Shown here one piece after another: positions 44,828 to 48,745 of a stretch of DNA of 64,000 nt (its first letter is position 1; each line of letters starts with the position of its first letter). The notes under the pieces were generated by a model that was given only the letters and a program-made list of their open reading frames with translations, searched no databases and was not told the origin of the DNA. The position numbers and the translations under genes are program-made. The DNA comes from an uncultured bacterium (GTDB lineage: Bacteria > Chlamydiota > Chlamydiia > Chlamydiales > FEN-1388). Location of the stretch: the NCBI GenBank assembly GCA_964462925.1, contig CAYWZU010000003.1:22381-86380 (forward strand), read 5' to 3'.

Positions 44828-46669
44828 ATGAGCAATACTCTTTCTATTTCAGATCAACTAACTAAACTCGATCCAGATCGCGCTTTACTACCAAGTAAAC
44901 CATCCTGGCATGAGAACGAGCGAAATATGAGGATTACTGGAATTGCTCTGATCGCAATTGGTGCAGTTGGGGCGGCTCTTTCTGTAGCAGCTATTGCCTT
45001 TGGCGCTATGGGAGTAAGTCTTGGCGCTCTACCAGCTGGCGGACTTATCGGAGTTGGGGTAGGTGGTATTGCCCTCTCAATTGCTGCTATTGCAAAAGGA
45101 ATCTTTTTGCTTAACAAATCCTACTGGAACGACCAAAGCTATGTTGATAAGCAGTCCTTTCAGGCAATGAAGATGTCCTTTGATGATATCGTCAAGACCT
45201 ATGACTGGGAGCATATAAATTCTGGCAACCTGCTCTCCAATAAAGCCCTTAAAGCAAAGTTCTTTGAAAAGATTGAACATATGGAATATGCATCCATCAT
45301 CGAGCAGCATAGGCAGCAAATCCTCGAGCACAAATTTATTTCCTTTAAGGAGCTAAAGCCAAAGCTTATCCTCGAAGCCAAAAATCTTACCGACCGCTCA
45401 TTTAAAGAAAAATATGGCGATCAGCCTCTTGTAGACGCTGTTTTAGGCAAAGAAGATGCCTTTTATGTTGCTATGATTCGGCGCGCCATAGCTTCTCTTC
45501 CCTACCACACTATCTGTCAAGATTATGCTGTAGAGTTATCCAAAAACATTATCTCAAAGGAAGACATTACGGCTGTAATTTCTGACCAATGCGCAGGAAA
45601 AAGCTTCTCTACAATCTTTGAAGCGCAAGGAAAAGATCATTTTTGGCAGATTATACAAGATCAAATTTTGCCTCCAGAGCACTTTAAAGAGCTTGTTTTA
45701 CAAGAAGAGCTCACAGTAGCAGAGCTCCTTGAGCGATTTGGCTGGAATCTCTTTACTCTTCGTATACTCCAAGGACGAGATGTTCGCCAAAAGCTGCTTA
45801 TCGAAATAAAAGATTTGAGTTTTTCGCAGATTATCGAGCGCTATAGCTGGAAGGCAGTTGATGAAGCGCTCCTTTTGCAAAAAGACCTCACCCCCCTTGC
45901 AGCGGCAGAATGCGAGCAAATCAGAACTTTTGAAGAGATCTACACACGCTTTGGTGAAAATGTCTTTAAAAAGCATATCCTTTCCTCAAAAGATCTGATC
46001 ATTCAAAGCAGGATTAAAGACCTCTGTCAAAGAATGGCATTTTGTACGATGATCGATAGCTATAAAGATATCCTTATCCCATACAACTTACTTCCCTATA
46101 ACGTAGATGAGCTTATCAAAGAAAAAGAAGCCACAGATCAAAGGTTAAAAACTCGAAAAACGAACGCAGAAAGGGCCGCAACTGAAAGCGCAAAAGCTGC
46201 TTTCACAGCAAAAGATGCCAATATTTCATCAAGCCTCAAGCTAAAACAGAGTGCAAGAAAGGCCATAAACGCAGAAAACATCGCCCACACACAACATGCA
46301 GCGCGCATACAAGGGCAAATCGATCAAGAAGACCAGGCACATAGAAACACACTCTATGAGCTTAAAAAGCAAAATCCAGCTGCAAACTGCGATGCTGAAC
46401 ATCATCGACATATGGCGGCTAAGCGATCACTTGAGCTTACAAAGCTTCAGGAAGAAAGCAGACATCGCATGCAGATTAGCTACCTTATTAACAATAAACA
46501 AACAACCTCTCGCATACACAAAGAACAGGTTGCAGCCCAAGAAGCAGCCTACAAAAAACTTATCCTGCAAGCAGAGCTTACAAAAAAAGAGCAAATTGCA
46601 ACTGCAACAGAGCTTCATGCACTTGAGCTTCGCGCTGTCGATGCAAAATTTAAAGAGCTTATAGGTTAA
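44828..46669 (+). CDS. Inc-like membrane protein with long coiled-coil C-terminal region
   Basis: Residues ~35-95 form a ~60-aa bilobed hydrophobic block (ITGIALIAIGAVGAALSVAAIAFGAMGVSLGALPAGGLIGVGVGGIALSIAAIAKGIFLL). The C-terminal 170 aa are charged and heptad-like. Confidence 0.6.
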   Translation: MSNTLSISDQLTKLDPDRALLPSKPSWHENERNMRITGIALIAIGAVGAALSVAAIAFGAMGVSLGALPAGGLIGVGVGGIALSIAAIAKGIFLLNKSYWNDQSYVDKQSFQAMKMSFDDIVKTYDWEHINSGNLLSNKALKAKFFEKIEHMEYASIIEQHRQQILEHKFISFKELKPKLILEAKNLTDRSFKEKYGDQPLVDAVLGKEDAFYVAMIRRAIASLPYHTICQDYAVELSKNIISKEDITAVISDQCAGKSFSTIFEAQGKDHFWQIIQDQILPPEHFKELVLQEELTVAELLERFGWNLFTLRILQGRDVRQKLLIEIKDLSFSQIIERYSWKAVDEALLLQKDLTPLAAAECEQIRTFEEIYTRFGENVFKKHILSSKDLIIQSRIKDLCQRMAFCTMIDSYKDILIPYNLLPYNVDELIKEKEATDQRLKTRKTNAERAATESAKAAFTAKDANISSSLKLKQSARKAINAENIAHTQHAARIQGQIDQEDQAHRNTLYELKKQNPAANCDAEHHRHMAAKRSLELTKLQEESRHRMQISYLINNKQTTSRIHKEQVAAQEAAYKKLILQAELTKKEQIATATELHALELRAVDAKFKELIG

Positions 46670-46810
46670 AAAGTAAAACTTTTGAATCTTGCTCTGCTTT
46701 CAGCATAAGAGTTTTTGCACCGTCAACAGCTACGCCATCGCCAGCTTTGAGGGTATTGCCAGCAAAAGTAATGCTGCCTTGTACGACTTGCAGATACCCG
46801 CGAGGATCAA
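46578..46810. repeat. 233-bp direct repeat, copy 1
   Basis: Same sequence as 48513-48745, with one mismatch seen at 46806/48741. Confidence 0.9.
46659..46810 (-). pseudogene. Duplicated 3' fragment of the pirin gene
   Basis: Encodes DPRGYLQVVQGSITFAGNTLKAGDGVAVDGAKTLMLKAEQDSKVLLFNL*, identical to the end of 48594-49286. The frame hits a stop about 25 codons further upstream. Confidence 0.8.
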
Positions 46811-47186
46811 GAGTACCACCAGATGCGCGTGAAAAAACGGTTCCAAGTGCTCTATCGATGCTTCACCGCTGCACAAAGCCGGAACATGCGGACTATCTCT
46901 TTGGGCCTCTCGCAGATATCCCAATTAATGATCGCGTACAATTTCTGGAGAGTCTTTGTCTGTTTGTGGCTCATCTTCACTCTGAGCTCTGGCATGATCT
47001 GGGACCAATTTTGGCAAAAGGCGCAATAAAGGCGAGACCTTACGACAAACAGTTTCACTATTTCCAGAAGGTTTGCGAAGCAATCCAGCTGAAGTAAAAG
47101 CTGCCCTCCAGGCCGTCTCCGCACTACAAAATCATGCGCATTGCCCTCCATGCAGCTATTAGCTATTAGCCTCACATATTGAGGGA

Positions 47187-47216
47187 CAACTTACGAAATT
47201 TACCACTGTTTAGGGC
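47187..47216 (+). repeat. ~29-nt imperfect direct repeat, left of vapBC
   Basis: caacttacgaaatttaccactgtttagggc versus gaacttgaaattcaccactgtgtaagagc at 47995-48023. Confidence 0.6.
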
Positions 47217-47289
47217 TAAGAATTGCATAAATAGTGTGATTCTGTCATAATTAAGACTAGGCAGACTAGCGTGATAAAGGAGGTTTTAT

Positions 47290-47562
47290 ATGGCTTTACA
47301 CTCACATCATGAAAAAAATACGTGGCAGATACAAGAAGCAAAGACCTATTTTTCTAAGCTTATCCATAATGCCGAAGAGTTTGGCTTACAAAAAATTACT
47401 CGCCAAGGGCATGAAGTAGCTATTGTAATGTCAAAGCAAGAGTATGACAAGTTAGTGAAGCCCAAAACATCACTTATTGATTTTTTTACCAACTCCCCTT
47501 TAAGTGAGATTGATATTACTATTGAGCGCAGTAAAGATTCAATGCGAGAAGTTGACTTATGA
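47290..47562 (+). CDS. vapB: Phd/YefM-type antitoxin (VapB partner)
   Basis: TWQIQEAKTYFSKLIHNAEEFGLQKITRQGHEVAIVMSKQEYDKL is a typical Phd/YefM fold sequence. ATGA overlap with the PIN gene. Confidence 0.8.
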   Translation: MALHSHHEKNTWQIQEAKTYFSKLIHNAEEFGLQKITRQGHEVAIVMSKQEYDKLVKPKTSLIDFFTNSPLSEIDITIERSKDSMREVDL

Positions 47563-47993
47563 CCTACCTGCTCGATACGTGCATTGTTTCAAAATTACCA
47601 AAAATGAAAGCGCGAAACGACACCAAGCTTCTTAACTGGATTGCAAAACATAGTGAAACAGACTATTTTTTAAGCGTTGTGACTATTGGCGAAATCCAAG
47701 CAGGAATAGCACAGCTTGTGAAACCAAGTGACTTGCAAAAAAAGATGCACTTAGAAGAATGGCTTATTGCAGATCTTATTCCCAGATTTCGTGGAAGAAT
47801 ACTTGGAGTAGACGAGGTGGTCGCCAAAAATTGGGGTCAGATTGTAGGAGTTGGTCGATCAAAAGGAATTTGCATACCCGCAAATGACGCCCTCATTGCT
47901 GCGATAGCCCTCACTCACAACCTAATTGTAGTTACAGAAAACAGCAAAGACTTTATCAATTCCGGAATTAGCCTGTTTAATCCTTACCTATAG
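47559..47993 (+). CDS. vapC: PIN-domain toxin VapC
   Basis: YLLDTCIVSKL (first acidic PIN residue), TIGEIQAG, NDALIAAIALTHNLIVVTENSKDF. Confidence 0.85.
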   Translation: MTYLLDTCIVSKLPKMKARNDTKLLNWIAKHSETDYFLSVVTIGEIQAGIAQLVKPSDLQKKMHLEEWLIADLIPRFRGRILGVDEVVAKNWGQIVGVGRSKGICIPANDALIAAIALTHNLIVVTENSKDFINSGISLFNPYL

Positions 47994-47994
47994 A

Positions 47995-48023
47995 GAACTT
48001 GAAATTCACCACTGTGTAAGAGC
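47995..48023 (+). repeat. ~29-nt imperfect direct repeat, right of vapBC
   Basis: See 47187-47216. About 24 of 29 positions are identical, with one 2-nt indel. Confidence 0.6.
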
Positions 48024-48262
48024 AGCATTGTGATTTTGGGGAATTTGGCTGCTTGTGAAAGCAGTAGCCGCACGAGATCGAATAGATATTGGTGCTATAA
48101 TGTTCCATTTTTACTTTCAGATCCTCGGTGAGGACAATAAATTCGGCAACTTCGGCGATAAGGAATCTAGATACTCTTTATTTTCGGGCTTTTGCCTTAC
48201 TAGGCCTTATCAAGGCACTTGTGGGTTTGTTTTCATAAACCTTATATTTCATAAAATCGCAC

Positions 48263-48512
48263 ATCGCAGGGGCCGGCCCTAGGGGGTCGATTTAACATCA
48301 TTTTATAAAGAGTACTTAATGGTAAAATTTGCCCTTTCGAGACCGAGACCGTGGCCGAGACCGATGCATAAATCAAATTGAGGGTAACCATCGGTCACGG
48401 TCTCGGACGCGGTCTCGGTCTCGGAATGGAGCTCGCACGAAGGACAATTTTTGACAGTAAGCATCCCGGCAAAAAGGAGCTAGAATCAACACCCTAGGCC
48501 GGCCCCTGCGAT
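48263..48512. mobile_element. MITE-like non-coding element, 250 bp, 21-22-bp terminal inverted repeats
   Basis: Left end atcgcaggggccggccctaggg. Right end ccctaggccggcccctgcgat is its reverse complement minus one C. Internal hairpin cgagaccgagaccgtggccgagaccgatg / catcggtcacggtctcggacgcggtctcggtctcg (48338-48423). Confidence 0.7.
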
Positions 48513-48604
48513 TTACAAAAAAAGAGCAAATTGCAACTGCAACAGAGCTTCATGCACTTGAGCTTCGCGCTGTCGATGCAAAATTTAAAGAGCTTATAGG
48601 TTAA
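48513..48604 (+). pseudogene. Duplicated 3' fragment of the Inc-like gene 44828-46669
   Basis: Encodes ..KKEQIATATELHALELRAVDAKFKELIG*, identical to the last 92 nt of that gene. Confidence 0.8.
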
Positions 48605-48745
48605 AAAGTAAAACTTTTGAATCTTGCTCTGCTTTCAGCATAAGAGTTTTTGCACCGTCAACAGCTACGCCATCGCCAGCTTTGAGGGTATTGCCAGCAA
48701 AAGTAATGCTGCCTTGTACGACTTGCAGATACCCGCGAGGGTCAA
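48513..48745. repeat. 233-bp direct repeat, copy 2
   Basis: See copy 1. Confidence 0.9.

Follow-up and report, generated by a model that had tools for sequence, protein, structure and literature searches.

Several described systems insert DNA into a bacterial genome and leave the target gene whole. Phage 21 and e14 rebuild the 3′ end of their target, icd, and islands that target tRNA genes likewise duplicate the 3′ end of the target, which keeps the gene functional, and hold toxin-antitoxin genes inside. In Campbell products obtained with vectors in Chlamydia suis and Chlamydia trachomatis, the insert is bracketed by repeats that arise from the homologous patch, the target is undisrupted and the event is reversible by recombination (PMC10715202). 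Toxin-antitoxin pairs stabilise integrated elements (PMC2654960), and related tandem duplications arise in transformation through unequal inter-chromatid integration (PMC3784515). Here we describe a locus of comparable design in a stretch of 64,000 nucleotides (nt) from an uncultured chlamydia-like bacterium (Chlamydiales, FEN-1388; assembly GCA_964462925.1, contig CAYWZU010000003.1, positions 22,381 to 86,380), referred to below as the window. In this locus a direct repeat of 228–233 nt, spanning the site where an Inc-like and a pirin gene overlap at their 3′ ends, brackets a 1.7-kb cargo that includes a vapBC toxin-antitoxin cassette, and both genes are retained in full. Our preferred, tentative explanation is a duplication-insertion that took place at the locus in one step. 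Coordinates throughout are positions in the 64-kb window on its forward strand.

Structure of the direct repeat

Positions 46578–46810 and 48513–48745 form direct repeats that are identical at 232 of 233 positions, as found by repeat search, base-by-base comparison and self-BLASTN; the latter, run on the whole window, returned the pair at 99.6% over 233 nt with an E value of 2.6e-119. An earlier note on this DNA, drawn from its letters alone, had reported near-identical 233-bp repeats with one mismatch, and the near-identity and the mismatch were both found again. The length is better given as a range, with 228 nt certain (46578–46805 equals 48513–48740 exactly, and direct comparison shows identity dropping abruptly at both edges) and the last five positions, 46806–46810, ambiguous. 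The sole mismatch (A at 46806, G at 48741) is a synonymous change for pirin (GAT/GAC). The copies are spaced 1935 nt from start to start, with 1702 nt in between, and the 64 kb hold no other repeat of like quality, the remaining pairs in self-BLASTN being two tRNA-related ones. The features that make up the repeat are the following.

44828–46669, + strand: Inc-like gene, intact, 613 amino acids (aa), taken from the list of open reading frames (ORFs); its last 92 nt lie within repeat copy 1
46578–46805, no strand: repeat copy 1, exact block, holding the Inc-like gene end and a truncated 3′ copy of pirin (46659–46805, minus strand)
48513–48740 (to 48745 in the 233-nt reading), no strand: repeat copy 2, exact block, holding a truncated 3′ copy of the Inc-like gene (48513–48604) and the true 3′ end of pirin
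48594–49286, − strand: pirin (YhhW-like bicupin) gene, intact, with Pfam Pirin and Pirin_C_2

The block takes in the 3′-terminal 92 nt of the Inc-like gene and 152 nt from the end of the pirin gene, whose stop codons overlap by 11 nt (46659–46669); this composition of two gene ends had been claimed before and is borne out by the ORF coordinates and by Pfam. Each gene is intact once and present once more as a 3′ stump, again as the note had it, and alignment adds that both intact C-termini are native. The Inc-like protein aligns end to end, free of gaps and to the final residue, with a 613-aa homologue (P0002, 62% identical), and the pirin stops where its six aligned homologues stop. Given that both gene ends are native, the ancestral state was a convergent, overlapping pair of the Inc-like and pirin genes. 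No pirin paralogue lies beside copy 1, where tblastn homology to pirin ends at the repeat edge. The pirin probably starts at the ATG at 49271, giving 225 aa, the length also of its homologue P0004. The label "Inc-like" has its sole basis in an N-terminal hydrophobic stretch, and the protein matches no Pfam or NCBIfam family.

The segment between the repeats

From left to right, the cargo consists of a pseudogene remnant (46807–47213), the vapBC cassette (47220–47993), a spacer (here counted as 47994–48262) and a nested-hairpin element (48263–48512). The earlier note had seen degenerate ORFs, a vapBC cassette and an element bounded by terminal inverted repeats (TIRs) that abuts copy 2; the last two stand, and the degenerate ORFs proved to be one identifiable pseudogene remnant. 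The parts are listed below.

46807–47213, + strand: remnant of a gene for a ~680-aa protein, supported by phmmer, tblastn and tblastx
47220–47993, + strand: vapBC cassette, comprising a conserved upstream region of ~45–70 nt, vapB and vapC
47290–47562, + strand: vapB, Phd/YefM type (Pfam PhdYeFM, 3.5e-10; NCBIfam phd_fam above cut-off)
47559–47993, + strand: vapC (Pfam PIN, 6e-10; NCBIfam VapC equivalog model below cut-off)
47187–47213, + strand: copy A, pseudogene 3′ end, one half of an imperfect direct repeat flanking vapBC, from gapped alignment
47995–48019, + strand: copy B, pseudogene 3′ end, with a stop-equivalent TAA at 48017–48019
48020–48262, no strand: spacer, 243 nt, with no recognisable coding remnant
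48263–48512, no strand: nested-hairpin element, 250 nt, 52% GC, its last base abutting repeat copy 2

A phmmer search with the frame 46819–47094 against 1.84 billion representative proteins gave two matches besides itself, of 676 and 691 aa, with E values of 1e-15 for P0255 and 9e-7 for P0256. When these two proteins were compared with the window by tblastn, residues ~140–216 mapped to 46807–47037, residues 208–248 followed after a frameshift at 47010–47132, and the last 16 residues with the stop codon mapped to 47163–47213. The remnant is without residues 1–139 and ~249–660, that is, a gene of ~2 kb has suffered a frameshift and an internal deletion of ~1.2 kb (~410 codons); tblastx with two loci, L015 and L017, also supports it. 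The ~680-aa gene is known from three chlamydia-like contigs, and no further remnant of it was found between 46.5 and 51.8 kb. Sequence searches of Pfam, NCBIfam and PDB gave no match for its protein family, for which reason a name for the decayed gene was rejected, the HECT-like look of the C-terminus being an impression only. An ORF of 297 aa at 50639–51532 (minus strand) shares 29% identity over 221 aa with the L015 gene that stands immediately before the intact ~680-aa gene. An inversion model, in which the decayed gene once stood beside this 297-aa gene, was rejected on the lack of any other remnant at 46.5–51.8 kb and on the absence of the pairing in L017.

The stop codon of vapB and the start codon of vapC overlap by 4 nt (ATGA), and the two genes are predicted to encode an intact, working-looking type II toxin-antitoxin pair. 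VapC proteins with 72–85% identity occur across many short environmental contigs. In ten other vapBC loci, at 71–78% nucleotide identity, the homology is limited to 47220/47247–47992, and the neighbours differ at every locus compared (nuoA, nadE, an RHS-type gene, a fatty-acid desaturase gene). Similarity confined to the cassette amid changing neighbours indicates that vapBC moves, or is retained, as a unit of ~770 nt. A contig of 1575 bp from the Logan collection (run ERR11571141) contains a truncated VapC (77 aa, >90% identical to that of the window) adjoining a gene for a Y1 (IS200/IS605-type) transposase, a hint that some vapBC copies sit beside single-strand transposons. In another chlamydia-like contig, L004 (6431–6604; also in L005 and L006), a different nested palindrome directly follows a homologous vapBC; its arms of 28 nt are 96% complementary, enclose an inverted repeat of 30 nt and overlap the stops of vapC and of a convergent NAD synthase gene.

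The cassette is flanked by a small duplication of its own. Copies A and B, of ~25 nt, are ~84% identical, and the gapped alignment of 47158–47212 with 47967–48018 scored 33, against a shuffle mean of 16.6 and with none of 200 shuffles reaching that score. Positions 48005–48024, which extend 5 nt beyond copy B, match positions 3036–3055 of L015 at 19 of 20, where the P0255 gene has its stop codon and 3′ flank. The cassette with its duplicated gene 3′ end is an older, smaller instance of the 228-nt design. Comparable flanking repeats are absent from seven other vapBC loci, and the idea that long flanking repeats are a general trait of vapBC was therefore rejected. To the right of copy B, the spacer gave no six-frame Pfam match and has no paralogue in the window; it probably stems from the sequence that natively followed the decayed gene.

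The nested-hairpin element has perfect TIRs of 16 nt (48263–48278 and 48497–48512, ATCGCAGGGGCCGGCC) that reach ~26 nt with one indel, each including the palindromes GGCCGGCC and CCTAGG, and its core is a 32-nt inverted array of CGAGAC hexamers. The predicted fold is one long hairpin of −69 kcal/mol (z = −9.2). The TIR pair encloses just the final 250 nt of the cargo, not the whole of it. No second copy of the element was detected in the window or in viral contigs, metagenome contigs of the Joint Genome Institute that contain both 13-nt arms included no true copy, and an Rfam scan yielded sub-threshold microRNA-hairpin noise only. One metagenome match was dismissed as chance, as it lies within the coding region of a 59%-GC contig that is otherwise dissimilar. 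There is no direct repeat of the target-duplication kind at the ends of the element. Being single-copy in the window and without target duplication, it does not qualify as a miniature inverted-repeat transposable element (MITE), which is defined by multiple copies. A promoter and terminator scan of the region stayed at or below shuffle expectation.

Taken as a whole, the cargo is a mosaic piece of chlamydia-like chromosomal DNA rather than a mobile element in its own right. Its left end falls within a gene remnant, at residue ~140, and its trinucleotide composition is ordinary for this genome (75th percentile), both of which argue for a chromosomal chunk. It has no integrase, transposase or replication gene by Pfam on ORFs or by a six-frame scan at E up to 10, no integrase remnant (the only recognisable remnant is that of the ~680-aa protein gene), no paralogue within the window and no blastn match in plasmid and phage collections. 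Similarly, no integrase or transposase was found in the ~50 ORFs scanned out of the 61 in the window that have at least 120 aa. The cargo proteins were all seen on one public contig only, the 105,418-bp record that also lists the neighbouring genes, so the structure is present in the deposited assembly, and it is very likely real in the genome. A suspicion that the cargo was missing from the public contig, raised by the lack of a 100% match for VapC, was rejected: VapB and VapC are both there, and the representative of the VapC cluster is a 77-aa fragment.

Junctions and inverted repeats

The left junction, J1, joins repeat copy 1 to the pseudogene, and the right junction, J2 (48512/48513), joins the end of the hairpin element to the start of the block. 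Two further features bear on these edges.

46806–46810, no strand: ATCAA at junction J1, readable as the end of a 233-nt repeat that bears one substitution, or as the first bases of the cargo, with 4-nt microhomology (TCAA)
46553–46577, no strand: left arm of a 25-nt inverted repeat, 21/25 complementary, with its partner at 46691–46715 inside the repeat

The pseudogene aligns with its relatives clearly from 46810 onward, and the homology may already set in at 46807. With an onset anywhere in 46807–46810, ATCAA cannot be assigned to either side, and it is for this reason that the duplicated block is given as 228–233 nt. Microhomology at J1 amounts to at most 4 nt, and J2 is without microhomology. 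The left arm of the inverted repeat ends on the base just before repeat copy 1, and inverted repeats of such strength within 200 nt occur at only five loci in the 64 kb. The two arms reflect similar encoded peptides, KKLILQAE in the Inc-like protein and KTLMLKAE in pirin. It may be that this arm is connected to the breakpoint. J2 has structure-forming DNA on both sides, namely the outer foot of the −69 kcal/mol hairpin and the inner foot of the strong inverted repeat. Polymerase stalling and illegitimate joining are classically associated with hairpins, and the structured DNA that flanks J2 fits stalling or breakage provoked by structure.

Relatives of the locus and a second repeat-bracketed island

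Among 5.8 billion proteins, the Inc-like protein has three homologues, namely itself and two with 62% and 51% identity. The nearest relatives have no pirin at the Inc-like locus: adk follows the Inc-like gene directly in the 51% relatives, and an M15 peptidase gene intervenes in the 62% relative. The nearest pirin elsewhere is 61% identical. No empty site and no second strain turned up in the searchable collections by exact protein look-ups, by a genome scan, which returned only the 62% relative, or by protein searches.

The window contains a further repeat-bracketed island at the tRNA-Asn gene (38529–38605). The 3′ half of this gene and ~125 nt downstream are repeated at 93% identity (38558–38729/42423–42592); the second copy spans to 42606, the first ~88 nt are identical, and divergence sets in beyond the tRNA part. 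These repeats bracket 3.9 kb with genes for a 23S-rRNA-IVP-type four-helix protein, HigB(Gp49)/HigA(HTH_37), a 111-aa ORF and an ankyrin-repeat protein, and the island (38529–42606) has no integrase. The region is the classical footprint of a decayed integrase-mediated island, and with it as a precedent, toxin-antitoxin cargo bracketed by repeats of ~200 nt is nothing exotic for this genome. Compared by identity, the 228-nt duplication appears younger than both the ~84% duplication at the vapBC flanks and the 93% tRNA-Asn repeat.

Origin of the duplication

We tentatively favour a one-step, in-place duplication-insertion by illegitimate recombination, based on replication or repair, and regard it as a plausible explanation in which we have somewhat less than even confidence. 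The starting point would be the Inc-like and pirin genes in convergent orientation with their ends overlapping by 11 nt. The locus would have been copied to about 46805; synthesis would then have moved onto 1.7 kb of unrelated chlamydial DNA, running from the middle of a dispensable gene to the outer foot of the hairpin element, and would finally have returned 228 nt upstream in the original locus, so that the block was copied a second time. Such a single step might consist of a nascent strand switching template twice, or of the capture of DNA during fill-in at a staggered break or during unequal sister-chromatid repair. The block copied again holds both gene ends, so both genes escaped damage and the variant had a chance to survive. 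Where one copy is made from the other within the same genome, identity over 228 nt with abrupt ends is expected; the attachment (att) repeat of tRNA-Asn, by comparison, is only 93% identical. Since all models need two illegitimate joints, and a circle adds a homologous crossover to them, parsimony would favour the event in place. The zero to one differences between the copies agree with the earlier note in pointing to a recent event, and gene conversion could also preserve such identity. That note had further held that a duplication of more than 200 bp is far beyond a transposase target-site duplication, which the figures confirm (228–233 nt versus 2–14 bp), and that the arrangement is reversible by homologous recombination, for which a direct repeat of 228 nt is indeed a plausible pop-out substrate.

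Several points weigh against one-step duplication-insertion in place. Donor locus, empty site and second strain were not found in the searched collections. J2, lacking microhomology, is not typical for microhomology-mediated template switching. In bacteria, duplication joints seldom contain templated insertions as long as 1.7 kb, and non-homologous end joining is not known in chlamydiae. That the inverted-repeat arm coincides with the repeat edge was seen post hoc, the rough chance being about 0.004–0.01. A Campbell product is identical in sequence to the in-place product, and in Chlamydia suis the integration of complete circular DNA through chromosomal homology, with the target gene undisrupted, has been demonstrated by experiment (PMC10715202).

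That last point leads to the foremost alternative, a Campbell-type integration in which a circle of ~1.9 kb, made up of the cargo and a 228–233-nt patch, would have entered by a single RecA-dependent crossover and thereby duplicated the patch. The topology of a single crossover fits exactly, with perfectly identical direct repeats of one patch bracketing the insert; Chlamydia integrates whole circular vectors without disrupting the target, at times amplifying the integrant (PMC10715202), and a pop-out circle from a sibling cell could re-integrate in the same manner. The earlier note had offered Campbell integration or duplication-insertion, and while the topology suits this pair of options, sequence cannot tell the two apart. 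Its more specific picture of a circular DNA integrating found no support: nothing indicates a pre-existing circle, and the insert starts mid-gene and is without integrase, transposase or replication gene. Replicon, mobilisation and recombinase genes are all wanting in a cargo that starts within a pseudogene, plasmid and phage collections hold no similar DNA, and 228 nt are short against the arms of at least 1 kb that are effective experimentally (PMC10715202). Moreover, the joining of patch to cargo is left unexplained and still requires two illegitimate joints; we consider this integration unlikely, though it deserves serious weight. We think it improbable that the locus is the relic of an integrase island that targeted the 3′ ends of both genes, carried replacement copies and later lost its integrase and most of its length by deletion. 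The tRNA-Asn case in the same window, with its repeats 3.9 kb apart, HigBA, the ankyrin gene and no integrase, is an obvious parallel, and toxin-antitoxin pairs, which stabilise integrated elements (PMC2654960), are the typical last survivors of decayed islands. The repeat also rebuilds the native 3′ ends of both genes, a trait common to the rival mechanisms. Six-frame scans and the scanned ORFs of the window, however, gave no integrase remnant, a copy borne by an element should differ from the host copy as the tRNA-Asn repeat does (93%), which does not agree with 100% over 228 nt, and the left repeat is adjoined by a truncated host-type gene rather than by an element end. Equally little weight goes to a two-step history, in which a neutral tandem duplication of 228 nt, or a larger one trimmed beside the hairpin element, would have been followed by foreign DNA at the joint. 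A tandem duplication of the block keeps both genes intact and would hence be neutral, and the exact meeting of the hairpin element's end with the start of repeat 2 could be the outcome of an adjacent deletion caused by a mobile element. Yet complete, identical copies require insertion at, or trimming to, the exact joint, the extra steps must fall within the short time that zero to one differences permit, and the hairpin element bears no signs of mobility (single copy, no target duplication, no relatives).

There is also a small chance that the assembly graph was misthreaded and that the true state is an uninterrupted junction together with a free circle, a tandem array with several cargo copies, or several strains mixed together. 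The sequence comes from an unannotated contig of the metagenome type (105,418 bp), the copies are identical over exactly one graph node, and an exact repeat of 228 nt exceeds usual k-mers, so that read pairs must have resolved the copies. On the other hand, both junctions must occur in real molecules, a cargo without replication function makes a stable free circle unlikely, neither 228 nor 233 nt is a usual k-mer or read length, and the cargo proteins are all on one public contig with their neighbours. Transposition of the whole cargo, with the right-hand inverted repeat, a degenerate left end and an abnormally long target duplication, is largely refuted and we regard it as very improbable. 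The cargo does end in a perfect 16-nt terminal repeat, its first 16 nt match that repeat at 7 of 16 including the terminal ATC, and a truncated vapC with >90% identity lies beside a Y1 transposase gene in another sample. A match of 7 of 16 is near chance, though, and TIRs are not present at both insert ends; neither the cargo nor the scanned ORFs of the window encode a transposase, and known target duplications span 2–14 bp against the 228 here. The block starts with TTAC and J1 contains TCAA, the cleavage tetranucleotides of IS608; the geometry is unfit, the block including TTAC rather than following it, and an IS200/IS605 origin was rejected on this ground and for the lack of any such gene here. 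The target-restoring design occurs three times in the window, at the 3′ half of tRNA-Asn (93%), at the ~25-nt gene end beside vapBC (~84%) and in the 228-nt block (100%). An unrecognised process, recombinase-independent or acting in trans and perhaps driven by hairpins, that inserts DNA of the toxin-antitoxin type at gene 3′ ends and duplicates the target, could conceivably account for such recurrence, and we give it a faint chance, more than whole-cargo transposition.

Genomic surroundings

The window is otherwise ordinary chromosome, with lptFG, a Mur ligase/alanine racemase fusion, tyrS, groESL, adk and kinase genes. Positions 46670–51700 form a lineage-specific variable region that holds the cargo, pirin and three more ORFs. 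The interval from the Inc-like gene to adk, compared with three relatives (L001, L002 and L003), is a hot spot, being empty in two of them, occupied by one M15 peptidase gene in the third and 5 kb long here.

Elsewhere in the window, two tRNA-Ser genes (TGA and CGA anticodons; 93% over 96 nt) flank DUF1186 and GMC oxidoreductase genes at 18391–21394. At 5524–7977, one ORF of 817 aa joins the middle and C-terminal domains of a Mur ligase with a complete alanine racemase, and at 31690–31779 overlapping, very strong inverted repeats (up to 24/25) lie between tyrS and a NIF3-family gene.

Comparison with known systems

Recombination between the two repeat copies would excise a circle of 1,935 bp and restore the overlapping genes. 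Loss of the segment would mean loss of vapBC, and post-segregational killing would tend to select against it, in keeping with what is described for integrated elements (PMC2654960). A toxin-antitoxin pair would in this way ride on a segment that homologous recombination could otherwise remove. The locus illustrates cleanly, in nature, how the genome of an obligate intracellular, chlamydia-like bacterium gains DNA at a variable spot with both neighbours kept; it reveals no new class of mobile element and no new biochemical activity.

In contrast to the Campbell products of chlamydial vectors, the locus is without vector, replicon or selectable element, the insert is a chromosomal fragment that begins in a pseudogene, and the patch measures only 228–233 nt. 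The tRNA-targeting islands are near in scale, the tRNA-Asn repeat of ~170–200 nt being of similar order. The locus differs from integrase islands in four respects: neither an integrase nor a remnant of one was found, its repeats are identical where theirs have diverged, two overlapping protein genes form the target, and the left end of the insert lies in a truncated ordinary gene. A transposon or MITE insertion would share the flanking target duplication and, at one insert end, the perfect TIR; the duplication is 228 nt rather than 2–14 nt, the TIRs bound only the last 250 nt, no transposase is encoded and the 250-nt element is single-copy. Duplications with templated insertion, whether of the type of fork stalling and template switching (FoSTeS) or microhomology-mediated break-induced replication (MMBIR), or RecA-independent, show the same direct duplication, with foreign or ectopic DNA at the joint, little homology and breakpoints adjacent to hairpins. 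Compared with those cases, the insert is long (1.7 kb), the duplicated tract is short (228 nt) and no donor locus is known; we know of no experimental precedent for template-switch duplication-insertion in chlamydiae. We class the locus as a natural insertion-duplication with the topology of a Campbell product. Rearrangements of this kind are known, and this one occupies a variable part of the genome of an uncultured chlamydia-like bacterium. It is modestly unusual among such systems in that one block restores two overlapping genes at once and in that the target-restoring design recurs within a single window.

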